NCBI GenBank assembly: GCA_965250045.1
Contig: OZ252286.1
Span: forward strand, 2,150,269 to 2,214,268
DNA length: 64,000 nt
Source of the DNA: Candidatus Marinacidobacterium sp.
GTDB lineage: Bacteria > Acidobacteriota > Vicinamibacteria > Marinacidobacterales > Marinacidobacteraceae
Reading direction: 5' to 3'
Shown: positions 9,149 through 64,000 of the stretch, piece after piece
Numbering within the stretch: the stretch's first letter is position 1
Layout of the letters: each line of letters begins with the position of its first letter
The notes under the pieces: model-generated
What the model was told of the DNA's origin: nothing
The model's input: only the letters and a program-made list of their open reading frames with translations
The model's database searches: none
Translations under genes and position numbers: made by a program

Positions 9149-10524
9149 GCGGGGCGGCGCGCGGACTCCCGGGCCGCTTTGCGGTACCCATTTTCGAAGG
9201 CGCTGACGCCTATCGGGCCGACCCGCGGCGGACCAGTCTCGAAGGAACCGGTTCCGGCCAGATTGTCCGGGAGCGAACCGCGGCCATCCTGGAGCGGGTG
9301 CGACGGGAGGGGGACGACGCTCTCGTCGAGTTGGCGCGCCGGTTCGATTCCGCCGACTTCGAATCGCCGCGCCTTCGGGTATCCCCGGAGGAACTCGCTC
9401 GCCTCGCCGCGGACGCCGGGCCGGAGGAGCGGGGGCTGCTCCGGCGGACCCGGGACCGCATCGCGGCCTACCACGAGCGCCAGCGCGAAGAGTCGTTCCG
9501 GATGGATCTCGGGGAGGGATCGCGCCTCGAATGGCGATCCGCTCCGATCGCGTCCGCGGGGGTGTATGTGCCCGGCGGAGCTGCGGTGTACCCGTCCACC
9601 GTACTGATGAACACGGTTCCGGCGACCGTGGCCGGAGTACCGCGGATCGCGCTCGCGACGCCTCCGGGCGCCCTCGAACGTAGTCCGGTGCTGGCGGCGG
9701 CGGTCCTCGCGGCCGGCGTCCACGAGGTCTACCGGATCGGCGGGGCCCAGGCCATCGCGGCCTTTGCGTACGGAACCGCGACCGTCCGGCCGGTGGACAA
9801 GGTGGTGGGACCGGGGAACGCCTACGTCGCCGAGGCAAAACGTCAGCTCGGCCACCGCATCGGGACCGATGCGTTCGCCGGACCCTCCGAAGTCGTGGTG
9901 TTGGCCGACGAGACGGCCCGGCCGGACTGGGTTGCCGCGGATCTCCTGGCCCAGGCCGAACACGGTTCCGGAGAGGAACGCGCCATCCTCATCACCACCT
10001 CGCGCGAGCTTGCGCAGGCGACGGTCGCCGAGCTCGGCCGCCAAGCCGAGGGCCAACCGAATGCCGAAACCATCGCCCGCGCCCTCGCGCGCCACGGAGC
10101 GGTGGTTCATGTCGAAGGATTGGACGAAGCAGTGCGGATCGCGGAGGAAATCGCGCCCGAACACCTTGAGGTCATGACTCGCGACCCCGAGACCCTTGCC
10201 GACCGGTTCCCGAGCGCGGGGGCGGTCCTGCTGGGTGAGCACTCGCCCGTGGCAATCGGCGACTACGGAGCGGGTCCGAATCACGTCCTGCCGACCGGCG
10301 GCACCGCCCGCTTCGCCTCGCCGCTCTCGGTCGGCGATTTCCTGAAACGGCAAAGCGTCCTCCGCTTCCGGAAAGCGACCCTGGAGTCGTTCCGGGAGGA
10401 CTTCGAGCGCTTTGCCCGCATCGAGGGATTCGAGGCGCACGCCCGCTCCGTTGCGATCCGCTTCGAGGATGATCACCCGCAGGGAACGCCGGCCACCGGT
10501 AGCCCGGCGGCGTTCCGGTCTTAA
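9145..10524 (+). CDS. hisD: Histidinol dehydrogenase
   Basis: GVYVPGG, VGPGNAYV, AGPSE, AQAEH, APEHLE, GPNHVLPT. Confidence 0.97.
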   Translation: MSGAARGLPGRFAVPIFEGADAYRADPRRTSLEGTGSGQIVRERTAAILERVRREGDDALVELARRFDSADFESPRLRVSPEELARLAADAGPEERGLLRRTRDRIAAYHERQREESFRMDLGEGSRLEWRSAPIASAGVYVPGGAAVYPSTVLMNTVPATVAGVPRIALATPPGALERSPVLAAAVLAAGVHEVYRIGGAQAIAAFAYGTATVRPVDKVVGPGNAYVAEAKRQLGHRIGTDAFAGPSEVVVLADETARPDWVAADLLAQAEHGSGEERAILITTSRELAQATVAELGRQAEGQPNAETIARALARHGAVVHVEGLDEAVRIAEEIAPEHLEVMTRDPETLADRFPSAGAVLLGEHSPVAIGDYGAGPNHVLPTGGTARFASPLSVGDFLKRQSVLRFRKATLESFREDFERFARIEGFEAHARSVAIRFEDDHPQGTPATGSPAAFRS

Positions 10525-10722
10525 CAGCCTGTGGCGAAACTCACGCGGCGTTCGAGCGGCGATACATCCCGGCTGAACCGCCCCCCCACCGGGAGAACTG
10601 GCGCTATGCGGCGCTCTGCGTTGCGTTTCGGTCGAAATACACTCGGTATTCCTCCCTCACGCGCCTTGTCAGCCGGGCGCCTCCCCGCTCTCGGCGCTCA
10701 CCCGAGTTCCACCACAGGCTGT
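10524..10722 (+). mobile_element. MITE copy (181 bp core + one module = 199 bp)
   Basis: TA|ACAGCCTGTGG...CCACAGGCTGT|TA; the left TA is part of the hisD stop. Confidence 0.85.
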
Positions 10723-10755
10723 TAGAACAGATCGCGGTTTCGCTACATTGCCGGT

Positions 10756-16977: not shown

Positions 16978-17395
16978 CAGCCCGTGGACAAAGTGAACCG
17001 GCATTCGAGCGGCGATGCATCCCCGCCAAACAACCGGTGATGAAACCCACGCGGCCCAGTTCTCCCGGTGGGGGCTCGGCCGGCGATCCATCCCGGCTGA
17101 ACTGCGTCGCTTCGCGCCGCTCGTCGTTGCGTTTCGGTCGGAATACACCCGGGCCAGTTCTCCCGGTGGGGGCTCCTCCCTCACGCGCCTTGTCAGCCAG
17201 GCGCCTCGCCCCCACCGGGAGGACTGGCCGGCCTCGGCGCTCACGTGGGTTCCACCACCGGCTGTTCACCGCTCTGCTTCGCGTCGCTCATCGTTGCGCT
17301 TCGGTCGAAATACGCTAGGTATTTCTCCCTCGCGCGCCTTGTCAGCCGGGCGCCTCCCCGCTCTCGGTGCTCGCCCCACTTTGCCCAAGGGCTGC
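16977..17395 (+). mobile_element. Nested MITE (element within element, 3 modules)
   Basis: 419 bp = 2x181 + 18 + 18 + 19 + 2; outer and inner termini are both visible. Confidence 0.85.
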
Positions 17396-18693: not shown

Positions 18694-18911
18694 GCAGCCG
18701 GTAGACAAAGTCACGCGGCGTTCAACCGGCGATGCATCCCGGCTGAACCACTCCGCTTCGCGTCGCTCATCGTTGCGCTTCGGTCGAAATACACCAGGGC
18801 CAGTTCTCCCGGTGGGGACTCCTCCCTCGCGCGCCTTGTCAGCCGGGCGCCTCACCGGCCAGTTCTCCCGGTGGGGGCCTCGGCGCTCGCGTCACTTTAT
18901 CCACAGGCTGC
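18694..18911 (+). mobile_element. MITE copy (218 bp, two modules)
   Basis: GCAGCCGGTAGACAAAG...CTTTATCCACAGGCTGC|TA; overlaps the M20 gene stop. Confidence 0.85.
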
Positions 18912-22548: not shown

Positions 22549-22765
22549 ACAGCCTGTAGCAAAACCCACGCGGCCCAGTTCTCCCGGTGGGGGCTCGGCC
22601 GGCGATCCATCCCGGCTGAACCGCGTCGCTTCGCGCCGCTCATCGTTGCGTGTCGGTCGGAATACACCCGGGCCAGTTCTCCCGGTGGGGGCTCCTCCCT
22701 CACGCGCCTTGTCAGCCGGGCGCCTCGCCGGTCTCGGCGCTCACGCGGGTTTCACCACAGGCTGT
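22549..22765 (+). mobile_element. MITE copy (217 bp, two modules)
   Basis: TA|ACAGCCTGTAG...CCACAGGCTGT|TA; overlaps the lctP stop. Confidence 0.85.
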
Positions 22766-24534
22766 TAGTTGGTGCGGTTGCGGAAGATCCACACCGCGGC
22801 CCCGATCGCGATGCCGGCCACGACCAGGGAACCGGCATTTACCGGTCCCAGCGTGCCGGACCACAGGATCGCATAACCGAGGGCTCCCGGGAGCAGGGCG
22901 TAGTAGACGAACGGAACCAGCGTGCGCCGGATCACCGCGCCTTCCCGGCCGACCAGCCCGACGACCGCCGAGGCGGCCACCACGTTGTGGACACAGATCA
23001 TGTTCCCTGCCGCTCCCCCGACCGCCTGGAGCGCGACCACCCAGCCGGGATCCACCGAGAGACGCTCGCCGACACCGAACTGGAACAAGGAGAACATCAT
23101 GTTGCTCACCGTGTTGCTCCCGGCGACGAAGGCCCCGAGACCGCCGATGAAGGGTGCGAAGAACGGCCACGCCGACCCCGCGATCTGTGCGGCGCCCTCA
23201 GCGAGGGCGATGGGCATCGAGGCGAGCCCTGCCGCACCGCCGCCGGTGTTCAGGAACACCTGCACCATGGGCACGGTGAACACGAGCGCCACCGAAGCGA
23301 GGGCGGTACTCCGGAATGAGGCGGAGACGGCGCGCCCGACCTGCCCTCGGTCCATCCGGTGGATCAGGACCGCAAACAGCGAGGCGGCGATGAAGACGGC
23401 GCCCGGAAGGAAGAGCGGCGCGGCGCTCGCGCTGATGTCGCTGCCGAAGATGTCCGACCAGCGAATCACCACTCCCGAAAGGAATTCCTTGAAGGGCAGC
23501 GACGGCAGGCGGGTAAGCACCAGGAGACCGCCGACTACCGCATAGGGAGCCCATGCGGATACGGCTCCGATCTTGCGGCCCTCCGCCGGCTGGGTGTCCG
23601 AGATCAGCTTTCCTCCGACCCAGTCCGCGTCCCAGGCGGAGCGCGGCGGGAACTCGAAATGTTGGCTGGCAGGGGGCATGAAGAGGCCCCGCCGCGCGGC
23701 CGTAACTACGATCCCGAGCCCGATCAGGCCGCCGAGGAGCGCCGGGAATTCGGGACCGAGCAGCCAGGCGGTGAGCAGGTAGGGAGCCGTCATCGACACC
23801 GCGGCGAAAAGGGCGAACTTCCAGACCGCGAGGCCCTCCCGGAAGCTCCGGCGCTCCCCGAAGAACCTGGTCATGGTGGCGACCACGATCAGCGGGACCA
23901 GGGTGCCGGCGACGGCATGCAGGATCGCGACCCGAAGTCCGATGAAGGCCAGGAACTCCGTCCATTCCGGGAATCCGAGCCCGGCGGCGTAGGCGGCGAC
24001 CGCTTCCGATCCCGAGAGACCGGTGGAGACCCCGACCAGGATCGGGGTTCCCGCGGCGCCAAAGGAGACCGGGGTGCTCTGGATGATCATTCCCGCCACC
24101 ACGGCGGCGAGCGGCGGGAACCCGAGGCCCACCATCAACGGCACGGCAACGGCGGCCGGCGTCCCAAACCCGGCCGACCCCTCGATGAATGATCCGAACA
24201 GCCAGGCGATCAGGAGGACCTGGATGCGACGGTCGGGAGTGATGCCGACAAACCCGCGTCGGATCACGGAGAGGGCTCCGCTCTCCTGCATGGTGTGCAG
24301 CAGGAGAAGCGCGCCGAAGATGATGTAGAGCAGCGTCCCCGCGACCACCAGGCCGTTGACCGACGCGGCCGCGATCCGGACGCCGGAAATGCCCCAGATA
24401 CCCCAGGCGAGTCCAGCCGCCGCGAGCCAGCTAAGCGGCATGGCGCGCGACGCCGGCCAGCGCAATCCGACCAGAAAGAGTGCGACCACCCCGATCGGGA
24501 CGAGCGCGATCGCGGCAAGACCAAGAGTTCCCAT
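22765..24534 (-). CDS. lctP: L-lactate permease
   Basis: Polytopic membrane protein; [39 protein letters not shown]. Confidence 0.93.
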
Positions 24535-26246: not shown

Positions 26247-26672
26247 GCAGCCTGTGGACAAAGTCACGCGGCCCAGTTCTCCCGGTGGGGGCTCGGCTGC
26301 CGATGCATCCCGGCCAAACAACCGGTGATGAAACCCACGCGGCCCAGTTCTCCCGGTGGGGGCTCGGCCGGCGATCCATCCCGGCTGAACCGCGCCGCTC
26401 ATCGTTGCGTTTCGGTCGAAATACACCAGGTATTCCTCCCTCACGCGCCTTGTCAGCCGGGCGCCTCGCCGGCCTCGGCGCTCACGTGGGTTCCACCACC
26501 GGCTGTTCACCGCGCCTCTGCGAGGCGCTCATCGTTGCGCTTCGGTCGAAATACGCTCGGGCCAGTTCTCCCGGTGGGGGCTCCTCCCTTGCGCGCCTTG
26601 TCAGCCGAACCCCCACCGGGAGAACTGGGCCTCGCCAGCCTCGGCGCTCACGCCACTTTGTCCACCGGCTAC
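26247..26672 (+). mobile_element. Nested MITE (4 modules, 10-nt internal deletion)
   Basis: Outer GCAGCCTGTGGACAAAG..CTTTGTCCACCGGCTAC|TA; overlaps the nrdJ stop. Confidence 0.85.
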
Positions 26673-29743: not shown

Positions 29744-32227
29744 TCAGTTGTTGTTCGGGCGCCGGTTACCGCTCGAACTGCTGCCGCGACTCACCGCGGT
29801 GCCACCACCGCCGCTGCCTCCGGCGCTGCTGCCGCCACCGCTGGCGCTGCTGCCGCCGCCGCCACTTGCGCCGCCGCCACCGCCGCCGCCCCGGCTCGCG
29901 CCGCTCTGTCCGCTCCCCGCGAAGCGGGAGAATCCACCGGGACGACTCCGCGAGGCGCTCGGTCGGCTACGCGAAGCCGCGCTCGGGCGACTGCGCGAGG
30001 CTCCGCTCGGACGACTCCTCACGGCTCCGCTGCTCGGACGGCTGCGGGAGGCGCCACTTGGGCGGCTCCGGCTGGCCCCGCTGCTCGGACGGCTGCGGGA
30101 GGCGCCGCTGGGGCGGCTCCGGCTGGCCCCGCTGCTCGGCTGGCTGCGGGAGGCTGGCGGGAGGCCGCTGGGGCGGCTCCGGCTGGCTCCGCTGCTGGGC
30201 TGACTGCGAGAGGCTCCGCTGGGGCGGCCCCGGCTGGCTCCGCTGCTCGGCTGGCTGCGGGAGGCGCCGCTGGGGCGGCTCCGGCTGGCTCCGCTGCGGG
30301 GCTGACTGCGGGAGGCGCCGCTTGGGCGGCTCCGGCTGGCTCCGCTGCTGGGCTGACTGCGAGAGGCTCCGCTCGGCCGATTCCGGACGGCACCGCTGTT
30401 CGGGCGGCTGCGGGGAGTTCCCGACCGGCCGGCAGCGGCAGCGCCGCTTCTCGGCGAGGCGGGCCGAACCGCTGACGGTCTTCTCGCTCCGGTCTCGCCC
30501 GTCCGCCCGGCGCGCGGCCTCGGAGATGTCGCCGGGCGGTTCCCGGCGGAGCCTGCCCGGCCGCGGGCGGCCTCGGGACGCCCCGTCTGCCGTCCGGCGG
30601 CCGCGGGTCCGGCCGCCCCCCGGCCTTGAGTCGTTGCCCGGGGAGTCGTTGCCCGGGACCGGTTCGCCTCCGCGTTGCCGGCACTCCCGCCCCGTCCGTC
30701 CGCTTCACGGGACAGGATGGCGCGGTCTCTTTCGGATGCGTACGTCGACCGCGTGCTGCGCGCGCGCGCTGCGCTTGACGGGATCGCCACGCGCTGCCCG
30801 CGCAGGGTGCGGCGATCGGCTCCCACCGCGGAGCGGCCGGCGGCGGACGCTGCCCGGGTGGTGGCGACCCGAGAATTCGAGAGCCGGCGATTCGTGGACT
30901 TGGCCGAGCGGGTCATTGCGGTGACCCCCACGGCGCGCTGCCGGAAACCTCTGTCGAGGATCGCTCCCCGGGACAGAACCTGGGCGTCATCCAGGTTCTT
31001 CAGACTTGAGGCGGACAACCGGTTGCGGGAGGCCGGCCGGCCGATCGCCTCCCGATCGGTGAAACTCCAGGAACCCCGATCGGCGACGGACCCGCGGGGC
31101 ACCGCCTTCCCGAGGATTGTTCCCCGGGGGATTCCGCGTCGTCCCCCGCGTGCCCCGGTTACGTTGTCGTAATTGCCGTGGTAGTAGCCGTACCCGTACC
31201 CGTAGAAGTCGTACACGGGGTAGCCGTAGTAGTTCAGCGGAGACCAGCCGACCCAGTTGTGGCCATAGCTCCAGGAGACCCAGCCCGGGCCCCAGACCGA
31301 GCCCGGCAGCCAGTACCAGCCGAGGGGACCGTGGCTCCACCTGCCGTAGTGATAGGGAGCCCATCCCCACGGGTCGTAGGAGACCCAGGTCAGGCCGAAC
31401 GGCGTGTGAGCCCAGCGTCCCTGCCGGTAGGGCGCCCATCCGGTGGAAACGGTCGGATACCAGACCCATCCCAGATGGACGTCCTGGTGCCAGCGGCCGT
31501 GCCCATCCAGGTCGTGGGCGTATTCCCGCACTTCCTCGGGAAGTTCGTCGTAGTGAGTTTCCGCGGTGGTGACGAACAGCCGCTGGCGGTCCTCGGTCCA
31601 CGCGAAGAAGTTGTCGTTGCCCAGGTATTCCTCCGGGGGGGCCGGCGCGGTCCCTTCGGAAGCGATGGTCCGCTGACCGGCTCCCACCAGTACGGAGCCC
31701 CATTCGGTGGACACTGTCGCAATGCCCGAGTACACGACAAACTGGACCGTCCGGCCATCTTCGAGCAGGTCCGTCCGGTACTCCCCCTCTCCCTGAGGGG
31801 AGAAGGTGCCGCCGGGGGTCTCCACGACGACCTCGGCGTCGCCGCCCATCCACACGATGAGCGCCCCGGTCCAGAACCCCAGCCGGTGCGGACTATCTCC
31901 TTCCACGTAGTCCAGCTTCGTGCCCTGGTCCATCCAGGCAGTGACCCGGCCTGCGAAGCGCAGTTCGACCTGGCCGGGTTCGCGCGTCCAGATGCGGTCT
32001 CCGGGAAGGAAGGGACTGCCTCGCTCCGCCTCGTGAGCGCCGAAGTCGTCAGCCCGCTGATGCCAGACGTCGCCGTCGACGGTGCTGAGATTGCCGTATG
32101 CGTAGGAACGTCCGGTTTCCTCGTTGGCCTGCGCGAGCGCTGGCGCCGGTTGGCCCAGAGCAAGCAGCAGGCTCAGAGCGCCTGAGTGCCAGAGGATCTT
32201 GTTGCGCTTGTTTGCTCTTTCGTGCAT
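29744..32227 (-). CDS. FecR-like / DUF6600 domain exported protein with long disordered tail
   Basis: RBS GAGGAGG, ATG 32227; GWAPYRQGRW, PWGWAPYHYGRW, VWGPGWVSW. Confidence 0.85.
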   Translation of the reverse strand: MHERANKRNKILWHSGALSLLLALGQPAPALAQANEETGRSYAYGNLSTVDGDVWHQRADDFGAHEAERGSPFLPGDRIWTREPGQVELRFAGRVTAWMDQGTKLDYVEGDSPHRLGFWTGALIVWMGGDAEVVVETPGGTFSPQGEGEYRTDLLEDGRTVQFVVYSGIATVSTEWGSVLVGAGQRTIASEGTAPAPPEEYLGNDNFFAWTEDRQRLFVTTAETHYDELPEEVREYAHDLDGHGRWHQDVHLGWVWYPTVSTGWAPYRQGRWAHTPFGLTWVSYDPWGWAPYHYGRWSHGPLGWYWLPGSVWGPGWVSWSYGHNWVGWSPLNYYGYPVYDFYGYGYGYYHGNYDNVTGARGGRRGIPRGTILGKAVPRGSVADRGSWSFTDREAIGRPASRNRLSASSLKNLDDAQVLSRGAILDRGFRQRAVGVTAMTRSAKSTNRRLSNSRVATTRAASAAGRSAVGADRRTLRGQRVAIPSSAARARSTRSTYASERDRAILSREADGRGGSAGNAEANRSRATTPRATTQGRGAAGPAAAGRQTGRPEAARGRAGSAGNRPATSPRPRAGRTGETGARRPSAVRPASPRSGAAAAGRSGTPRSRPNSGAVRNRPSGASRSQPSSGASRSRPSGASRSQPRSGASRSRPSGASRSQPSSGASRGRPSGASRSQPSSGASRSRPSGLPPASRSQPSSGASRSRPSGASRSRPSSGASRSRPSGASRSRPSSGAVRSRPSGASRSRPSAASRSRPSASRSRPGGFSRFAGSGQSGASRGGGGGGGASGGGGSSASGGGSSAGGSGGGGTAVSRGSSSSGNRRPNNN
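29935..30375 (-). repeat. 24/27-nt coding tandem repeats (SRSRPSGA / SRSQPSSGA)
   Basis: Visible in the translation of the C-terminal tail; boundaries approximate. Confidence 0.8.
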
Positions 32228-32370
32228 GGGCCACCTCCTCGAAGGCTGGCATCTCACGATGTCGCAATCCCTATGCCAGACGACAGCCGGTTAACGCATG
32301 AACCTGTCGGAACCCCATTTCGACTCATCGGGACCGGCCTGACGGTGCGTCGTGACGCCGGCGCCGCCCA

Positions 32371-32787: not shown

Positions 32788-32908
32788 GGACTCGCAACCG
32801 TTGTAATCGGGAACTAGGGGAGGCGGGAAGCCCCCACGAGAGAGACTAGTCGAGAGACCCCGGTCACGCCAATTGCTTGTTCGCGGTAGCGCGACGGCCG
32901 CATCGTCA

Positions 32909-33089
32909 ACAGCCTGTGGTGGAACCCGGGTGAGCGCCGCGAGCGGGGAGGCGCCCGGCTGACAAGGCGCGTGAGGGAGGAATACCAGGTGTATCGCAAC
33001 CGAAACGCAACGCAGAACGGAGCGAAGCGGAGTGGTTCAGCCGGGATGCATCGCCGCTCGAACGCCGCCTGGGTTTCACCACGGGCTGT
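32909..33089 (-). mobile_element. MITE copy, bare 181-bp core, reverse orientation
   Basis: ACAGCCTGTGGTGGAACCC...GGGTTTCACCACGGGCTGT|TA; no module. Confidence 0.85.
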
Positions 33090-33093
33090 TAAC

Positions 33094-36529: not shown

Positions 36530-36746
36530 CAGCCTGTGGTGGAACCCGGGTGAGCGCCGAGAGCGGCCAGTTCTCCCGGTGGGGGCGAGGCGCCCGGCTG
36601 ACAAGGCGCGTGAGGGAGGAATACCGGGTGTATTTCGACCGAAACGCAACGCAGAACGGAGCGAAGCGGAGTGGTTCAGCCGGGATGGATCGCCGCTCGA
36701 GCCCCCACCGGGAGAACTGGGCCGCCTGGGTTTCACCACCGGCTGC
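36529..36746 (-). mobile_element. MITE copy (218 bp, two modules), reverse orientation
   Basis: TA|GCAGCCTGTGG...CCACCGGCTGC|TA; shares its TA with the IS630. Confidence 0.85.
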
Positions 36747-40833: not shown

Positions 40834-41251
40834 GCAGCCTGTGAACGAAGCCACGCGGCCCAGTTCTCCCGGTGGGGGCTCGGTCGGCGATGCATCCCGG
40901 CCAAACAACCGGTGGTGAAACCCACGCGGCGTTCGACCGGCGATGCATCCCGGCTGAACCGCGCCGCTTCGCGTCGCTCATCGTTGCGCTTCGGTCGGAA
41001 TACACCCGGGCCAGTTCTCCCGGTGGGGGCTCCTCCCTCACGCGCCTTGTTAGCCGGGCGCCTCTCCGGCCTCGGCGCTCACGTGGGTTCCACCACCGGC
41101 TGTTCACCGCGCCGCTTCGCGTCGCTCATCGTTGCGCTTCGGTCGAAATACACCAGGGCCAGTTCTCCCGGTGGGGGCTCCTCCCTTGCGCGCCTTGTCA
41201 GCCGGGCGCCTCGCCGACCTCGGCGCTCACGTCACTTCGCCCACAGGCTGC
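40834..41251 (+). mobile_element. Nested MITE (3 modules)
   Basis: 418 bp = 2x181 + 3x18 + 2. Confidence 0.85.
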
Positions 41252-42739: not shown

Positions 42740-43061
42740 ACAGCCTGTGGTGAAACCCACGCGGCCCAGTTCTCCCGGTGGGGGCTCGGCCGGCGATGCA
42801 TCCCGGCCAAACAGCCTGTAGTGAAACCCGCGCGGCCCAGTTCTCCCGGTGGGGGCTCGTCCGGCGATGCATCCCGGCCAAACAACCGGTGGTGAAACCC
42901 ACGCGGCGTTCGACCGGCGATGCATCCCGGCTGAACCGCGCCGCTTCGCGTCGCTCATCGTTGCGCTTCGGTCGAAATACACCAGGTATTCCTCCCTCGC
43001 GCGCCTTGTCAGCCGGGCGCCTCCCCGGCCTCGGCGCTCACGCGGGTTCCACCACCGGCTG

Positions 43062-43062
<1 letters not shown>
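42740..43062 (+). mobile_element. Compound MITE: three tandem left ends and one right end
   Basis: Left-end sequence repeats at about 42740, 42811 and 42882; overlaps the valS stop. Confidence 0.82.
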
Positions 43063-45968
<2,906 letters not shown>

Positions 45969-47468: not shown

Positions 47469-48602
47469 GTGACCGCGGGCACTCCGCGGCCCACCGCGGT
47501 CATCCTCCTCGCAGGCAAGTCCCAGCGAACCTGGCCGCTGACCGCCGACTTCCCGAAACCGCTCCTGCCGCTCTGGGGCCGGCCGCTCACCGAGCGGGTG
47601 CTTGACCAGTTGGATGGCATCGTGGACACCGCGATCCTGGTGGTCGGTTATCAGAGGGAGCGGATCCTGGCCCATTTCGGCAGGAACTACCGGGGAATCC
47701 GCCTGGTGCCCGTCGAGCAGGAGCGCGCTCGCGGAACCGCCGATGCGCTTCGGGTCGCTGCCGCCGCGGTCAGGGGTCCGGTCCTCGTCCTGAACGGCGA
47801 CGACTTCTACCACCACGACGACCTGGCCCGGCTGACGCAGCACCCTCAGGCGATCCTGTGCAAGGAGGCCAGCGACCCCTGGAACCGGGCGACCGTCACC
47901 GTGACCGGCGACGACTGGCTGGTGGATGTCGAGGAGAAACCTCCGGAGGCCAAGCCCTGGCAGTTGAGCAGCGTGGGCGCCTATGCACTGGCGCGCGAGG
48001 ACCTCGATCACCTCGGGGAAGTCCGGGAGAGCGTGCGCGGTGAACTCGAACTGCCGGATCTCATCCGGATCCTGGCGCGCTCTCCCGGCGTGCGGGCGGT
48101 GCGCGCCCAGCGCCCCTGGATTCCGCTTACTTATCCGTGGGACGTCATCGGCCGCATCGTTCCGCTGTTCGGAGGCGACCCTCTGGGGGCAGGGGCTCGG
48201 GCGCTCGGGTTCGAGACGAGCAGCGGAGAAATGGGGGAGGGCGCCATCTTTCTCGGGGAGGGCGCATCGGTGCACCCGGACGCCCGCCTGCGGGGGCCGG
48301 TGGAACTGGGTGCGGGGGCCCGGATCGGCGCTGGCGCGGTCGTGGAGCGCGCGGTACTCATGGAGGGGGCGCGAATTGGAGCTCGAGCGACCGTCCGGGA
48401 CAGCGTGCTTGGGCGCGGCGCCTCGGTCGGCGCAGGGGCACGTCTCCTCTCGGGCCCAGTCGAGCGAATCCAGGTGCTCGGGCACACGGCGCGGGTGGGG
48501 GTGCCCGTCGTGGGGGCGTGCCTGGGAGCGAATGCGAGTGTCGCGAGCGGCTCGGAGACGCCTCCCGGCACCCTCCTGGGCCCAGGTGAGTCTTTCGGTT
48601 AG
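47469..48602 (+). CDS. Sugar-1-phosphate nucleotidyltransferase with left-handed beta-helix tail
   Basis: [41 protein letters not shown], hexapeptide repeats. Confidence 0.85.
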
Positions 48603-48606
48603 CCTA

Positions 48607-48805
48607 GCAGCCTGTGGTGAAACTCACGCGGCGTTCGAGCGGCGATGCATCCCGGCTGAACCGCCCCCCCACCGGGAGAACTGGCGCTTTGCGGCGCTCT
48701 GCGTTGCGCTTCGGTCGAAATACACTGGGTATTCCTCCCTCGCGCGCCTTGTCACCCGGGCGCCTCCCCGCTCTCGGCGCTCACGCGAGTTTCACCACAG
48801 GCTGT
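48607..48805 (+). mobile_element. MITE copy (199 bp, one module)
   Basis: TA|GCAGCCTGTGG...CCACAGGCTGT|TA; overlaps the lptFG stop. Confidence 0.85.
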
Positions 48806-51075
48806 TAGCGCCGCTGCAGCAACAAAAAGACCGAGGCAAGGCTGAAGAACAGGTTCGGAGACCAGGCTGCGAGCACTGGATCGAGTAGCTCCGCGTCCCC
48901 GATAGAACGGAAGAACTGGGTGGCTACCAGGTAAACGATCGCGATGGCGAACGCGATGCCGGCGCTGGCCCACGCGCTCTGATTCGTCCTCCGGAATGCG
49001 AACGGCAGGCCGATGAGCACCGTCACCAGCGATGCGAAGGGCAGGGAGGTCTTGGTCTCGAGGGCCACATGGAGCGAAGGATCGTGATGGCCTGCCGCCT
49101 CGATCGTTTCGATGCGGCGCTGCAGGTCGCCGTAGGGGAGGTGGTCCGTGGCCAGATTCTGCTCGAGGAGGGCCTCGGGTACCGAGACCTCCGGAATCTC
49201 GCGGATAGCGAAGGGTTCGGCCGCGCGACCCCGCTGGAGGTCGCGCTCCCAGCCTCCGATACCCGTCCAGGTCCGCTCTGCCTCGGACCAATGGGCGGAA
49301 GCGGCATAGCTGCGGGCGGTAAGCGATGCGCCGTCCGGGCTCAGTCGGAAGATGGACAATCCGCTCAAGACCGCGTTGTCCGCGTCGAAATCGTCGTAGT
49401 GGTAGATCTGTCCCTCGGGGCCCATGCCCCAGTGGCGCTCCAGCGGATTTACGGTGCGCCGCGCCTCGCCCCGGATGCGCCCGCCAGTCTCTTCGGTCTC
49501 GGGCGCCGTCAGGGGAATCAGCCGTTCCTGAAGTCCAAAGCCCGCGCCACTCGCGAGGATTCCCACGGCAAGCGCCGGGACGACGAGGCGCGTGCGGCTG
49601 ATTCCCCCGCCAAGAAACGCCGTCACCTCGTTGTGACGGCTCAGAAGCCCGAAGGTCACGAGCGTCGCCGTGAGGGTCGCCAGCGGCAACATCTGCGCCG
49701 TGAAGGCGGGGATCGAGAGGCCCAGGTAGCGAAGTACGGTGAAGGCCGGGATGTCCCGCTCGAAGGCGTCACGGATCACCCCGTTCAGCAGGCCGATCAG
49801 TTCCCATGAGAGGAGCGCGGCAAGTGAGATGGCGAGAAAAATGCCAAATTGGGTGATGACGTACCGATCGAGGATGGTGGGCAGCCCGGGCGGACGCCAG
49901 CGACGTACGGGTGGGCGGCGGCGGGGCACCAGCAGCCACAACCGACGGAGAAAGCGGAGCGTCGCCGCGAGCGGATCGAGTTCCCGCGAGGCCAGCGCCA
50001 GGAGAGCAATCCCGGCGGCGACCGTGAGGATGTTGGCGCCCCACATGGCGAGCCATGGCGACAGCTCCCCGGCGGCGGCGAGCTGTTCGCCGAACATGAT
50101 CGGGACATACCACGCGAGGACCACGAGGATTGCTATGGCGAATGCTCCGGCGCGCGCCGGTCTCGGGGATGGTCGGATCCCGAGTCCCAGGCCGAGCAAC
50201 CCGAAGGCGAAGCAAGCGAAGGGAAAGGCGAACTTCTTGTGGATCTCGACCAGATAGATGGGGTGGTCCGTGCCTTCATAGGCGGTCACCAGCTCCGGGA
50301 GAAGCATGGCCCGGGCGCTGTGGCTGGGGCTCAGGGTCTCCGGTCCGAACACTTCCTCGGCGTCGAGCGGCATGCGAATCTCTTCGGCGCGTTGAATGCG
50401 GTACTGCCCCGGATCGTCAAGGCCCGCGTTGTGGACCTCCACGCCGCTGAGTTCGAGGAATGCAAGGCGCTCTTTGGGGAGCGTTACCAGCCGTCCGCGG
50501 TCCGCGACAAAGATCGTCGGCTCGTCGATACGCGCGGTGTCCGCGAGGAAGACACGCCTCCAGCCTTCCTCACCCGGTGGCGCCTCCCCCACCAGCAGGA
50601 CCCGACCATCGAGGAGTTCGTCATAGAAGATGCGGGGCTCGATTTCGGTGCGCAGCCGGGAGCTCAGGAGTTCGTCCCTCAGTTCCACGAACCGCTGGTT
50701 CGACGGCGGGACGATTTCCAGCATCAACAGCAGACACAAGCCGAATGCGGCCCCTGCCGCGGTGGCGATCGGCAGGAGGAGACGCCAGGGAGAGATTCCG
50801 CCGGCCCGCATCGCGATCAGTTCGTGGCCGCTCGAGAGCCGGTTGAGTGCCAGCAGAATGCCGAGCAGAAGCGCGCTTGGGACCGCGACTGCCAAGAGCG
50901 CGGGGATCAGTTGGGCGAAGGCCAGGCCCACCGTGGCCGGGTTCGCTCCCTGGGTGACGATTAGCTGGATGTTGACGATGAGCTCGTTCAACAGCAGCGC
51001 GAACAGGAAGACCCCGGTCCCGAGGAATACGCCGGGGGCGATGAGCCGGAGGATGTAGCGATTGAGAAGACCCAC
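48805..51075 (-). CDS. Fused LptF/LptG LPS export permease
   Basis: Two permease halves (LLNRYIL..ELIAMRAGGIS; ILDRYVI..NEVTAFLGGGIS..AAWSPN); GTG 51075. Confidence 0.88.
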   Translation of the reverse strand: MGLLNRYILRLIAPGVFLGTGVFLFALLLNELIVNIQLIVTQGANPATVGLAFAQLIPALLAVAVPSALLLGILLALNRLSSGHELIAMRAGGISPWRLLLPIATAAGAAFGLCLLLMLEIVPPSNQRFVELRDELLSSRLRTEIEPRIFYDELLDGRVLLVGEAPPGEEGWRRVFLADTARIDEPTIFVADRGRLVTLPKERLAFLELSGVEVHNAGLDDPGQYRIQRAEEIRMPLDAEEVFGPETLSPSHSARAMLLPELVTAYEGTDHPIYLVEIHKKFAFPFACFAFGLLGLGLGIRPSPRPARAGAFAIAILVVLAWYVPIMFGEQLAAAGELSPWLAMWGANILTVAAGIALLALASRELDPLAATLRFLRRLWLLVPRRRPPVRRWRPPGLPTILDRYVITQFGIFLAISLAALLSWELIGLLNGVIRDAFERDIPAFTVLRYLGLSIPAFTAQMLPLATLTATLVTFGLLSRHNEVTAFLGGGISRTRLVVPALAVGILASGAGFGLQERLIPLTAPETEETGGRIRGEARRTVNPLERHWGMGPEGQIYHYDDFDADNAVLSGLSIFRLSPDGASLTARSYAASAHWSEAERTWTGIGGWERDLQRGRAAEPFAIREIPEVSVPEALLEQNLATDHLPYGDLQRRIETIEAAGHHDPSLHVALETKTSLPFASLVTVLIGLPFAFRRTNQSAWASAGIAFAIAIVYLVATQFFRSIGDAELLDPVLAAWSPNLFFSLASVFLLLQRR

Positions 51076-51095: not shown

Positions 51096-51354
51096 GGAGG
51101 CTGTGAACAAAGTCATGCGGCGTTCGAGCGGCGATGCATCCCGGCCAAACAACCGGTAATGAAACCCACGCGGCGTTCGGCCGGCGATCCATCCCGGCTG
51201 AACCGCGTCGCTTCGCGCCGCTCATCGTTGCGCTTCGGTCGGAATACACCCGGGCCAGTTCTCCCGGTGGGGGCTCCTCCCTCACGCGCCTTGTCAGCCG
51301 GGCGCCTCGCCCCCACCGGGAGGACTGGGCCGCATGAGCTTCTCTACGGGTTCC
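51096..51354 (+). mobile_element. Rearranged nested MITE ending in an inverted left end
   Basis: After the last module the sequence reads as the reverse complement of a left end (..CTCATGCGGCCCAGT). Confidence 0.7.
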
Positions 51355-60743: not shown

Positions 60744-61379
60744 GTGGTGTCGCTCCCGTTTGTTCCTTGGCCCGTCGCGCTCCGGTGCGGCGGGTTTTCT
60801 CCGATCCCCCAATTTCGAGAGGCTGTACGCATTTCGCAAGAAGAACCGAACCCGCAGCGCCTTCACCAAGCGGGCGATGATCTCACCGCGCACATCGAGA
60901 GACTGGCGCGACGAGCGGCGGCAAGTGCTCAGGTTGAGTTGGCATGGATCGAGATCAAGGGACCGCGCAGCGGACGGCGGGTACGGGTTTTCATCGAGCA
61001 AACGGGCGATGCGGTAGGCCTGACCGACTGCGAACGGGTGAACGAGAAGCTGTCCGCACTCCTCGATCTCGAGGATCCGATTCCCGGGTCCTACACCCTC
61101 GAGGTGAGCACGCCGGGTCTCGATCGTCCGCTGCGTTCGGTCGAAGAGTGCCGGCGATTCCTCGGGCGGCGGGTTCGGGTACGCCACCGGATGGAGAACC
61201 GGCAGGAGACCGTGAGCGGAACGCTTCAGGCGGTGAAGGAGGACGGCGTCCTCTGCCTGAATGGGCCCGACGGAGGGCGGCAGATCGCTTGGAGCGCAGT
61301 TCTCGCCGCGCGTCTGGCTCCGGACTTCGAGGTCCTGCTCGGAAAGCGTCCCGGCGATCGGAGGCGCCTGTCGACCTGA
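60744..61379 (+). CDS. rimP: Ribosome maturation factor RimP
   Basis: DCERV..LLDLEDPIPGSYTLEVSTPGLDRPL; lies upstream of nusA; start uncertain. Confidence 0.92.
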   Translation: MVSLPFVPWPVALRCGGFSPIPQFREAVRISQEEPNPQRLHQAGDDLTAHIERLARRAAASAQVELAWIEIKGPRSGRRVRVFIEQTGDAVGLTDCERVNEKLSALLDLEDPIPGSYTLEVSTPGLDRPLRSVEECRRFLGRRVRVRHRMENRQETVSGTLQAVKEDGVLCLNGPDGGRQIAWSAVLAARLAPDFEVLLGKRPGDRRRLST

Positions 61380-63787
61380 TGGCTGCCATCGAGGAACTCT
61401 CCACGGAGGTGGATCGCGCGGAGATCATCGCGAGCGTGGAACAGGCGGCAGCAGTGGCCGCTTCACGCAATAGCGGCCATCCGTTGCGTGCCCGCCTCGA
61501 TGCCGAAAAAGGGCATCTCGTGTGCTACGTGGTGAAGCGCGTGGCCAAGGAGGTGCAGGATCCCGAAACTGAGGTCGGTGTGGAGGCAGCTCCCGATGGG
61601 TCTTGGCCGGGTGATCTGGTGGAGATGCCGGTTCCCTTCGGTACGGCGGCCCGCAGCGCGGCGCGGGCGGCCGGCGCGGTCCTCGAGGCACGCCTCAGAG
61701 CCGCGCGGATGCTCTCCCGCGGCGAACGGTACCGCGACCGTATCGGCAAACTGGAAACGGCGATCGTCGCCCGTCGCGATGGGCAGGACCTCATCGTCAA
61801 CCTCGGTCCGGTAGAGGGACGGCTGCCCGCGGAAGAACAGAGCCGACACGAGGTCTTCAATCCGGAGGACACCATCCGAGTGGCGGTGCACTCCATCGAG
61901 CCCGACGATCCTCCCGTCATCCTGTCCCGGATTGCCCCGGCAGTCCTCGCCGGCCTCATCGAACGCGAGACGCCGGAGGTTCGCCGCGGAGTGGTCCAGG
62001 TTCGAGCGGTGGCACGCCATCCCGGCCTCCGGGCCAAGGTGGCGGTATCGAGCGCCGTGCCCGGAGTGGATCCGGTAGCCGCCTGTCTCGGGCCCGGAGG
62101 CTCTCGCATACGTGCCGTGAGCCGCGAGCTCCGCGGTGAACGAGTGGATGTGGTTCTGTGGGACGAAAGGATGGAGAGGTTCGCGCGCAATGCGCTTCGC
62201 CCGGCGGAAGTGCTCGACATCCGTGCCGTGGACGAGGAATTTCAAGGCGGGGGGTCGCAGAGGCTCCGCGAGAAGGGCGGGCTGCTCGTGACCGTTGCCG
62301 AAACCGAGCTACCGCGGACGCTCGGCAAGCGGGGCCAGAACGTTCGCCTCGCGTCTCAACTCCTCGGAGTTGACATCGAAGTGGCGGCCGAAGGCGATTC
62401 GCTGGAAGCAGACGAACGGAGGGCTCGGCGGGACCCCCGCGATACGGAGTCGCCGCGGCGCGGTCCCCGCGATACGGGGTCTCCGCGGCGTGGTCCCCGC
62501 GATACGGAGTATCCGCGGCGCGGTCCCCGCGATGGGGAGTCCCCGCGGCGCGGTCCCCGCGATGGGGAGTCCCCGCGGCGCGGTCCCCGCGATACGGAGT
62601 ATCCGCGGCGCGGTCCCGGCGATGGGGAGTCCCCGCGGCGCGGTCCCCGCGATGCGGAGTATCCGCGGCGTGGTCCCCGCGATGCGGAGTATCCGCGGCG
62701 CGGTCCCGGCGATGGGGAGTCCCCGCGGCGCGGTCCCCGCGATACGGAGTATCCGCGGCGCGGTCCCCGCGATGGGGAGTATCCGCGGCGCGGTCCCCGC
62801 GATGGGGAGTCGCCGCGGCGCGGTCCCCGCGATGCGGAGTATCCGCGGCGCGGTCCCGGCGATGCGGAGTATCCGCGGCGTGGTCCCCGCGATGGGGAGT
62901 CCCCGCGGCGCGGTCCCCGCGATACGGAGTATCCGCGGCGTGGTCCCCGCGATACGGGGTATCCGCGGCGTGGTCCCCGCGATGGGGAGTCCCCGCGGCG
63001 CGGTCCCCGCGATACGGGGTCTCCGCGGCGCGGTCCCCGCGATACGGAGTATCCGCGGCGCGGTCCCCGCGATACGGGGTATCCGCGGCGTGGTCCCCGC
63101 GATGGGGAGTCCCCGCGGCGCGGTCCCCGCGATGGGGAGTCCCCGCGGCGCGGTCCCCGCGATACGGAATATCCGCGGCGTGGTCCCCGCGATACGGAAT
63201 ATCCGCGGCGTGGTCCCCGCGATACGGGGTATCCGCGGCGTGGTCCCCGCGATGGGGAGTCCCCGCGGCGCGGTCCCCGCGATGGGGAGTCCTCGCGGCG
63301 CGGTCCCCGCGATACGGAATATCCGCGGCGTGGTCCCCGCGATACGGGGTATCCGCGGCGTGGTCCCCGCGATGGGGAGTCCCCGCGGCGCGGTCCCCGC
63401 GATGGGGAGTCCTCGCGGCGCGGTCCCCGCGATACGGAATATCCGCGGCGTGGTCCCGACAAGCGGCGGGAAGGACCCGGCGGGCCCGCGCGGCACCACG
63501 GACCCCGGAATCACCAGCCACCTCCCCGGCGGCCCGATCGGGCCGATCGGCCCGATCGGCCCGATCAGGTGAAGGAATCCGCGCCGGAGTCGCGGGAGCC
63601 TGAACAGCCGGTGGTGAAACCCACGGGGCGTTCGGCCGGCGATCCATCCCGGCTGAACCGCGCCGCTTCGCGCCGCTCATCGTTGCGTTTCGGTCGAAAT
63701 ACACTGGGTATTCCTCTCTCACGCGCCTTGTCAGCCGGGCGCCTCACCGGCCTCGGCGCTCCCGTGGGTTCCACCACAGGCTGTTAG
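61379..63787 (+). CDS. nusA: Transcription termination factor NusA with long repetitive C-terminal extension
   Basis: S1 and KH motifs (ARHPGLRAKVAV, DPVAACLG, ELRGERVD, LGKRGQNVRLASQL); ATG overlaps the rimP stop. Confidence 0.92.
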   Translation: MAAIEELSTEVDRAEIIASVEQAAAVAASRNSGHPLRARLDAEKGHLVCYVVKRVAKEVQDPETEVGVEAAPDGSWPGDLVEMPVPFGTAARSAARAAGAVLEARLRAARMLSRGERYRDRIGKLETAIVARRDGQDLIVNLGPVEGRLPAEEQSRHEVFNPEDTIRVAVHSIEPDDPPVILSRIAPAVLAGLIERETPEVRRGVVQVRAVARHPGLRAKVAVSSAVPGVDPVAACLGPGGSRIRAVSRELRGERVDVVLWDERMERFARNALRPAEVLDIRAVDEEFQGGGSQRLREKGGLLVTVAETELPRTLGKRGQNVRLASQLLGVDIEVAAEGDSLEADERRARRDPRDTESPRRGPRDTGSPRRGPRDTEYPRRGPRDGESPRRGPRDGESPRRGPRDTEYPRRGPGDGESPRRGPRDAEYPRRGPRDAEYPRRGPGDGESPRRGPRDTEYPRRGPRDGEYPRRGPRDGESPRRGPRDAEYPRRGPGDAEYPRRGPRDGESPRRGPRDTEYPRRGPRDTGYPRRGPRDGESPRRGPRDTGSPRRGPRDTEYPRRGPRDTGYPRRGPRDGESPRRGPRDGESPRRGPRDTEYPRRGPRDTEYPRRGPRDTGYPRRGPRDGESPRRGPRDGESSRRGPRDTEYPRRGPRDTGYPRRGPRDGESPRRGPRDGESSRRGPRDTEYPRRGPDKRREGPGGPARHHGPRNHQPPPRRPDRADRPDRPDQVKESAPESREPEQPVVKPTGRSAGDPSRLNRAASRRSSLRFGRNTLGIPLSRALSAGRLTGLGAPVGSTTGC
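62431..63450 (+). repeat. 34 x 30-bp coding tandem repeat (RRGPRD[T/G/A][E/G][S/Y]P)
   Basis: Consensus YGGTCCCCGCGATNNGGRGTNNCCGCGGCG, contiguous with no spacers. Confidence 0.97.
63604..63784 (+). mobile_element. MITE copy, bare 181-bp core, translated in frame within nusA
   Basis: GA|ACAGCCGGTGG...CCACAGGCTGT|TAG; the TAG is the nusA stop. Confidence 0.87.
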
Positions 63788-63793
63788 CTGTTC

Positions 63794-64000
63794 ATGCCGT
63801 CCACTGTCAGGGTCAGCGACCTCGCCAAAGAGGTCGGGATGGAACCCGGAGAACTCCTCCGGGTTCTCCAAGCGGATTTCGGCTTGCGCGCCCGGACGGT
63901 TTCTTCGTCCATTCCGGACGGTGACGCGCGAAAGGTCAAGAGCCGGCTGCGATTGCAGCAACGGCGGGCTTCGCGTCCCGATCGCCGTCTGCAGGCCGAG
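63794..64000 (+). CDS. infB: Translation initiation factor IF-2, N-terminal part (partial)
   Basis: MPSTVRVSDLAKEVGMEPGELLRVLQ..TVSSSI resembles IF2-N; position after rimP-nusA. Confidence 0.85.
   Translation, partial: MPSTVRVSDLAKEVGMEPGELLRVLQADFGLRARTVSSSIPDGDARKVKSRLRLQQRRASRPDRRLQAE

Follow-up and report, generated by a model that had tools for sequence, protein, structure and literature searches.

A basic, predicted disordered decapeptide-repeat tail on NusA in Candidatus Marinacidobacterium

Bacterial proteomes are poor in disordered regions. To our knowledge, few core transcription factors have gained such regions, mainly Rho, and those regions proved to control phase separation and fitness. 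Here we analysed a 64,000-nucleotide stretch of DNA from Candidatus Marinacidobacterium sp. (assembly GCA_965250045.1, contig OZ252286.1, positions 2,150,269 to 2,214,268 of the forward strand), and this whole stretch is called the window below. It was found that the nusA gene of the window carries, behind its KH2 domain, a long tail made up for the most part of near-perfect decapeptide repeats. A literature search found no paper on a NusA repeat tail, nor any containing the word Marinacidobacterium.

The closest described protein is the E. coli-type NusA. NusA is described as binding the flap tip at the RNA exit channel, with S1-KH domains that bind nascent RNA; the C-terminal end of the E. 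coli protein is described as non-essential, as binding the C-terminal domain (CTD) of alpha and domain I of IF2, and as autoinhibiting RNA binding (PMC12297416). The window protein shares with E. coli-type NusA the core of N-terminal domain (NTD), S1, KH1 and KH2, the rimP-nusA-infB operon, and a C-terminal end that varies by lineage. The difference lies in the tail, which has no HhH and is repetitive, basic and predicted to be disordered, and not folded and acidic like AR1/AR2.

The second comparison is with Rho, which carries lineage-specific disordered inserts or extensions in Actinomycetota, Bacteroides thetaiotaomicron and mycobacteria. Additional RNA binding and phase separation have been proposed or shown for these regions (PMC11347177; PMC13269538; 10.1101/2025.08.28.672908). 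The likeness to our tail is an Arg/Asp/Gly-enriched disordered region on a conserved transcription factor, and in kind the tail belongs with the lineage-specific disordered regions already known from bacterial transcription factors. The difference is that here it is the C-terminal tail of NusA that is affected, and that it is a near-perfect tandem array behaving as a variable number tandem repeat (VNTR).

Two eukaryotic systems may be compared by analogy only. Like the CTD of RNA polymerase II (Pol II), the tail would place tens of short, disordered, tandem S/Y-P units, in a number varying by lineage, on the elongation complex; but the unit has ten residues, is net positive and lacks YSPTSPS, and the S/Y-P part was lost in a sister species (L022). 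RD- and RS-type repeats are known from eukaryotic elongation and splicing factors, such as the RD motif of NELF-E and U1-70K, and the likeness is R-D in short disordered tandem units. A literature search for the NELF-E 'RD motif' returned no paper using the term.

The NusA gene and its repeat array

The window gene is a genuine NusA. The coding sequence (61379..63787, + strand) encodes 802 aa and ends with a TAG stop at 63785-63787. The true start codon, an ATG at 61379, shares one base with the rimP stop, and the N-terminal MAAIEEL is common to the gene product and to the database NusA entries of relatives. In the Pfam scan, NusA_N (PF08529) was matched with E=5.6e-9 (36.7 bits against a cut-off of 23.8) and KH_5 with E=4.1e-23 (81.7 bits). 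The S1 match between them was weak (20.8 bits against a cut-off of 22) and correctly positioned, with S1 followed by tandem KH domains, and the S1 of a relative from the same family (L038) exceeded the cut-off. The core, comprising NTD, S1, KH1 and KH2 (61379..62413, + strand, residues 1-345), was 83-91% identical to same-genus NusA, and in the AlphaFold2 model its NTD and KH domains had high or medium confidence.

A short charged linker in the ADERRARR region (62414..62431, + strand), conserved in the closest relatives, leads from KH2 to the array. The first-pass annotation, made from the letters alone, had described 34 contiguous 30-bp units behind KH2, and the same number was obtained when the array was read in the NusA frame, in which 34 uninterrupted decapeptide units of the type G-P-R-D-[T/G/A]-[E/G]-[S/Y]-P-R-R, 340 aa in total, occupied 62432..63451 (+ strand). 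Tandem Repeats Finder (TRF) reported a single array at 62435-63457 with a period of 30, 34.1 copies, 88% matches, 0% indels and a score of 1437. The first unit is DPRDTESPRR, and the remaining 33 units begin with G-P. As had been claimed, variation was nearly limited to three codons, namely position 5 (T in 16 units, G in 14, A in 4), position 6 (E in 28, G in 6) and position 7 (Y in 18, S in 16). The few minor changes elsewhere were R3 to G in three units, P8 to S in two and G1 to D in one, and no variation was observed at positions 2, 4, 9 and 10 (P, D, R and R). The statement that nearly every unit holds S-P-R-R or Y-P-R-R was also correct, since 14 of the 34 units ended with S-P-R-R and 18 with Y-P-R-R, the other two ending with S-S-R-R. 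The variants at codons 5 and 7 were associated (T or A with Y in 17 units, G with S in 13, mixed in 4).

String identity revealed an exact tandem duplication of a 120-bp, four-unit block (TEY-TGY-GES-GESS) at 63182..63421 (+ strand), in which 63182-63301 is identical to 63302-63421. This duplication had been recognised before with a shift of one base, which is immaterial in a periodic array. It had been taken as a sign of recent expansion, and the exact duplication together with the species-specific homogenised variants described below agrees with an expansion that is recent and ongoing. Because the higher-order duplication is exact, the unit variants are species-specific and indels are absent, growth of the array by slippage or unequal exchange between 30-bp units, accompanied by concerted evolution, is well supported. 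A DNA search located the array at only one locus of the 3.76-Mb genome, and tblastn of the genome returned no second protein-level copy, only compositional matches of 33-41%. An ESM Atlas look-alike search with the tail gave no usable match.

The 340 residues of the array include 99 Arg, 63 Asp+Glu, 66 Pro, 56 Gly and 18 Tyr. The fraction of charged residues (FCR) was 0.476 and the net charge per residue (NCPR) was +0.106. The hydropathy of 0.227 was well under the Uversky boundary of 0.451, and the isoelectric point (pI) was calculated to be 11.3 for the array and 5.5 for the core. With a 24-sequence alignment, AlphaFold2 predicted no secondary structure for residues 345-802, the predicted local distance difference test score (pLDDT) being 27-43. 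High FCR (>0.35), low hydropathy and the lack of predicted structure place the tail among the strong polyampholyte intrinsically disordered regions (IDRs) of the Das-Pappu class, with a net basic charge, which is in line with the disordered, charge-patterned tail that had been suggested. No Pfam family was matched in the tail (457 aa), which means that no HhH was detected after KH2. As to short motifs, the array holds 33 RG (as RRGP), no RGG, no GRG, no RS and two SR dipeptides; YSPTSPS-type heptads gave no match, the period being ten residues. The tail adds 52 kDa to the 37-kDa core, and the near-perfect Arg/Asp/Tyr array more than doubles the mass of NusA.

All six frames were open over the array, and hence an open frame alone proves nothing. 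The median dN/dS of the tail was 0.335 and that of the core 0.094, taken over 45 non-independent pairs of ten short-tail species. These sequence comparisons indicate that purifying selection acts on the tail in the NusA frame, about 3.5-fold less strictly than on the core; because of the values of ~0.34 and 0.09, the tail is likely to be translated and constrained, though loosely. Among the conserved codons of four expanded arrays, there were 11 synonymous and 10 non-synonymous distinct variants, with ~32% synonymous expected (p=0.04, a weak signal), and among the variable codons there were 7 and 17, respectively. The comparison of the two codon classes (Fisher p=0.14) was underpowered, with 21 and 24 events.

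The two borders of the array were bridged, from core to array at 61900-62473 and from array to tail end at 63404-63520, by Logan contigs of two other studies, including metatranscriptomic (RNA) libraries, which can contain DNA; no indels were listed. Depth dips within the array carry no meaning in these data.

When the tail alone was used as the query against a collection of 5.8 billion proteins, nine NusA entries with expanded arrays were obtained. P0001 was the sole entry to stay in frame, and the other eight, which are from sister species (P0002, P0003, P0004, P0005, P0007, P0008, P0029 and P0033), shifted inside the array to the +1 alternative frame with GVVPAIRSIP-like units. Entries with identical cores shifted at different units, P0007 switched several times and returned, and most of the shifted entries came from contigs of 75 kb to 2.0 Mb, shorter than the in-frame reference contigs (3.9-4.5 Mb). 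Because of these three features, the shifts are probably consensus (assembly) indels in C-runs of a difficult repeat.

Tails in related genomes and an element at the stop codon

The relatives examined belong, according to their records, to Acidobacteriota and Vicinamibacteria, several of them being 'Candidatus Marinacidobacterium', with sponge-type samples. The NusA core was matched in 30 of the 31 genomes searched, the sole miss being a genome (G002) that is 66% complete; in the same genus, 14 of the 15 other genomes were matched, with the same miss. A comparison of nusA tails in related genomes had been proposed as a check, with relatives out of frame as the outcome that would speak against the tail. 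All 14 same-genus loci ran in frame from KH2 into an Arg/Asp/Pro/Gly-rich tail, and out-of-frame arrays occurred only in the eight metagenome entries described above, in a pattern like assembly indels. The common end GPD[KR]RRGGP...HGPRD...APExR was reached by 13 of the 14. The exception was L039, which has repeats of its own and shares only the final ...APEAREQ with the other same-genus tails.

The tails differed greatly in length. Ten same-genus species had 3-8 xRGPRDxxSP units and tails of 83-167 aa, and a clade of four species including the window had ~32-37 units, 34 of them in the window and about 36-37 in L023 and L024. In L023, three of the 35 units had 11 residues owing to a whole extra Pro codon, and the frame was kept. 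The fourth member, L022, had ~30 eight-residue RRGPRDTE units without S/Y-P, flanked on both sides by decapeptides. L039 had ~45 DRRDS-type units in a tail of 356 aa, and these units come closer to an RS domain than the window array does. Unit variants were homogenised species by species. The expanded tails also differed in composition: the NCPR was 0.08-0.10 in long tails and 0.17-0.25 in short tails, and long tails had 3-27 Tyr, whereas nine of the ten short-tail species had none. The exception among the short tails, L025, had two Tyr, located within or next to an insert derived from the mobile element described below.

In the maximum-likelihood tree of the cores, the window, L022, L023 and L024 formed a clade with support of 98/97, all with tails of 389-463 aa and with cores diverged by ~10%. 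Its sister clade of ten species had short tails, and L039 was outside both. Given this topology, the simplest history would be one decapeptide expansion in the ancestor of the four species, after which the L022 array was homogenised anew with a shortened unit; L039 would have expanded its tail separately.

Beyond the genus, seven family-level loci had Arg-rich tails with other short repeats (RPDRE, RPDRN/S, GRGRGP) or none. An eighth relative, the only addition from a scan of JGI metagenome contigs, had a short tail in frame. Thus, the tail is a lineage-specific add-on, common to all relatives searched in shorter versions. The NusA frames of order-level relatives were 466-557 aa long (12 rows, one of them the unpublished G027), and in one of these relatives (L019) the Pfam scan placed HHH_5 after the KH domains. 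Other database NusAs of more than 616 aa (P0035, P0040, P0045, P0048 and P0054) had acidic tails; HHH_5 was present by scan in P0035 and was not confirmed in P0040.

Behind the array, the nusA frame of the window runs on for 336 bases. The first-pass figure of a ~340-aa tail was therefore right for the repeat part only, as the whole tail past KH2 measures 457-463 aa including an inserted element. Residues 692-741 (63452..63602, + strand; GPDKRREGPGGPARHHGPRN...APESRE) form a Pro/Arg-rich non-repeat end. This end represents the C-terminus that the genus had ancestrally, and the same-genus loci keep it conserved and in frame. It is followed by a copy of a miniature inverted-repeat transposable element (MITE) of ~184 bp with terminal inverted repeats (63603..63786, + strand), which was delimited by blastn, by comparison with relatives and by its element ends. 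It sits at the original stop codon and is read through in frame as the last 61 nusA codons. In relatives without the MITE, NusA ends with ...APESREQ-TAG, 6-9 nt before the infB ATG.

Blastn of the element in the genome of the window (G000) gave 660 high-scoring segment pairs (HSPs), 171 of them at least 150 bp long, and 112 copies kept both ends. The ends were preceded by TA in 474 of the 660 cases and by GA in 46. The inverted repeats, the copy number and the TA flanks assign the element to TA-flanked MITEs with an IS630/Tc1-type target, and it has no transposase because 184 bp is too short to encode one. The stop-codon insertion was found in three genomes, that of the window, L022 and L033, and the left flank was GA instead of the usual TA in all three. 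Because of this GA no TAA is formed, and translation would pass through the MITE to a stop at its right end. In L025, a copy lies inside the tail in a different reading frame of the element, again open and in frame with NusA. In-frame MITE-ORF fusions have been described for Rickettsia palindromic elements (RPEs; PMC10969869), and the likeness is a high-copy element read in frame as part of a protein. The family found here differs in being a TA-flanked foldback MITE that sits at a stop codon, with its left TA reading GA.

Besides the nusA copy, 20 further blastn HSPs of the same family were found in the window. Full or partial copies lie at 10520-10725, 17070-17372, 18695-18860, 22589-22768, 26358-26561, 32908-33090, 36584-36695, 40904-41250, 42881-43064, 48601-48809 and 51148-51308.

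Possible function of the tail and competing explanations

The analyses above show a conserved in-frame tail that evolves under relaxed purifying selection, is predicted to be disordered and has been expanded repeatedly. On balance, we lean towards regarding it as a basic, multivalent disordered extension of NusA that grew by slippage and that would, by analogy with described systems, add RNA affinity and condensate-forming valency. For the disordered Arg/Asp/Gly-rich inserts of Rho, a contribution to RNA binding and phase separation has been proposed (PMC11347177), E. coli NusA is described as forming droplets and nucleating foci (PMC7414142), and a Tyr/Arg grammar is described as promoting condensates (10.1101/2024.02.15.580391).

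The following course of events may be proposed. In this family, a disordered basic Arg/Asp/Pro/Gly tail would have replaced the usual C-terminal HhH (acidic repeat type) module. The ancestral tail of the genus probably had a few xRGPRDxxSP decapeptides followed by the conserved GPDKRRGGP...HGPRD...APExR end. In the four-species clade, replication slippage or unequal recombination among 30-bp units may then have produced ~32-37 units, homogenised within species, and this expansion would have brought in Tyr and lowered the net charge per residue. A polycationic, Arg/Tyr-rich tail on KH2 would be expected to add non-specific multivalent RNA affinity and so to raise the local RNA affinity of NusA, and it may promote Arg/Tyr-driven condensates or clusters. 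Such a role would be opposite in charge to that of the autoinhibitory acidic AR2 of E. coli NusA, which masks RNA binding. The charge reversal of the NusA C-terminus, from acidic and folded to basic and disordered, would accordingly predict an effect on RNA binding opposite to AR2 autoinhibition. The tails of one genus, with 3 to ~37 units and two unit types, offer a natural length series that could test how pausing, termination, RNA binding and RNA polymerase clustering respond to the valency of a basic IDR at the RNA exit channel.

Several observations weigh against a functional long tail. RNA binding and condensation are deduced from composition and by analogy, and the charge pattern was well mixed (approximate kappa of ~0.18), which favours a soluble expanded coil over self-association. 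The unit number varied from 3 to ~37 across species and between ~30 (P0001) and 37 (L024) in what is apparently one species, and the unit type changed among species (10, 8 or 5 residues). Since number and type vary in this way, length and exact sequence appear weakly constrained, and the exact unit number is probably only loosely constrained. MITE insertions were tolerated in the tails of four genomes (that of the window, L022, L033 and L025), and the synonymous excess within the arrays was weak, with 21 events. Moreover, eight of the nine metagenome entries shift frame inside the array, and such shifts, if real, would argue that the long tail is dispensable. Finally, the count of 34 units rests on the assembly, as the Logan contigs are short and none spans the array.

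There is a serious rival, which we consider possible though not probable: selection would keep only a short basic tail, and the 34-unit expansion would be a functionless slippage accident in a tolerant disordered region, that is, a near-neutral VNTR. The variation in copy number across the genus and between P0001 and L024, the array homogenised within species with its exact 120-bp duplication, the tolerated MITE insertions, the frame-shifted entries and the tail dN/dS of 3.5 times the core value can all be read in this way. Neutrality had already been named as a possibility in the first-pass annotation, and the range of 3 to ~37 units bears it out in part, whereas the dN/dS of ~0.34 does not fit a wholly neutral tail. 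Against the expansion being an accident, all four species retained tails of 389-463 aa while their cores diverged by ~10%, and the unrelated DRRDS unit reached a similar size, 356 aa, in L039. The frame was kept in all reference genomes, including the variants with three additional bases, and the expansions shifted composition in one consistent way, with Tyr gained and NCPR halved. If the tail were inert, it would still be a clean example of an essential protein that tolerates VNTR growth and an in-frame MITE insertion.

A bolder reading, which we regard as doubtful, is that of a convergent CTD-like or RD-repeat-like platform. A 300-370-residue Arg/Asp/Tyr array on NusA at the RNA exit channel would have been expanded at least twice independently (in the decapeptide clade and, as DRRDS, in L039) to a similar length. 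By virtue of its valency, the array would organise transcription condensates, or it would tether factors of RNA processing or translation, such as IF2 from the gene 6 nt downstream, to the nascent RNA. In that case stabilising selection, and not free VNTR drift, would act on array length.

It had further been suggested that the tail is a phosphorylated scaffold, in which S-P-R-R or Y-P-R-R would be modified to recruit or release partners during transcription, as in the Pol II CTD or RS domains. The motif is present in 32 of the 34 units, and the tandem array is carried by a factor at the RNA exit channel, which corresponds topologically to the place of the Pol II CTD. Both analogies were weakened by the relatives and by the array itself, and we now consider such a scaffold improbable. 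L022 expanded RRGPRDTE without S/Y-P and L039 expanded DRRDS, showing that the conserved element is something other than S/Y-P; nine of the ten short-tail species have no Tyr; and the array contains no heptad and, with its two SR, not a single RS dipeptide. A proline-directed kinase did not come to light either, no search aimed at one having been made.

That the array was inflated in assembly, or that the true gene stops or changes frame within it and the tail is not translated, appears very improbable. The six open frames, the eight shifted metagenome entries and a unit number that depends on assembly, with no Logan contig spanning the array, could be taken in its favour. However, three sister genomes that were assembled independently, with contigs of 3.9-4.5 Mb, gave ~32-37 in-frame units followed by the same conserved C-terminal segment, TRF found 0% indels, none was reported in the contigs of four runs, and the tail dN/dS was below 1 in the NusA frame. 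The shifted entries themselves show the pattern of consensus indels, with shorter contigs, differing shift units and the return of P0007.

Equally hard to credit is an element acting at the DNA or RNA level, for example a structured mRNA that tunes infB expression with the peptide being incidental: the units do contain short self-complementary stretches and their codon-5 and codon-7 variants are associated, but 300 nt of the array were predicted to fold no better than shuffles (z=-1.35; 21 of 200 folded at least as well), the complementary codons are absent from the L022 and L039 units, the RGPRD peptide motif is kept across different codons, and the codon association can arise by block duplication.

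Operon setting and other basic repeats

The gene order rimP-nusA-infB was confirmed by Pfam. The upstream gene, rimP, lies at 60744..61379 (+ strand; RimP_N, E=4.6e-18), and infB, encoding IF2, starts 6 nt past the nusA stop, its first part lying at 63794..64000 (+ strand; IF2_N, E=1.3e-7). The full IF2, read from the genome, has 902 aa. The gap between nusA and infB was only 0-9 nt across the genus (63785-63796 in the window; L023-L042). No ylxR-type ORF was visible between the two genes across the genus; the rest of the genome was not searched for ylxR.

A genome-wide habit of placing R/D tails on RNA proteins was considered and rejected, because the IF2 N-terminus is ordinary and no large disordered insert was found in either of the two Rho paralogs of the G000 genome (C1:152067-152282, + strand; C1:426063-426296, - strand), both of which scored above the Pfam cut-off for Rho_RNA_bind.

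Decapeptide arrays of the type GPRDGE-x-x-K/R-x, which contain the core motif of the NusA array, were observed in five database proteins (P0006, P0009, P0013, P0023 and P0024). These are M56/BlaR1-type membrane peptidases and one ECF-sigma-like protein, P0023 being from the planctomycete Gimesia panareensis. They stand in unrelated contexts, and convergence probably explains the similarity.

Two other basic repeats were observed. In the window, a second basic repeat tail is encoded by an array of 8.4 copies of 51 bp at 29977-30414 within a minus-strand ORF (29744-32257), which gives an 837-aa protein SGASRSRPSGASRSQPS-type Arg/Ser repeats close to its C-terminus. Outside the window, the top-scoring tandem repeat of the G000 genome (C1:1394074-1395828, + strand) consists of 80 copies of 15 bp encoding KKATR pentapeptides, followed by PPAQPPEEA repeats, and its product looks like a histone-H1/AlgP-like basic repeat protein.

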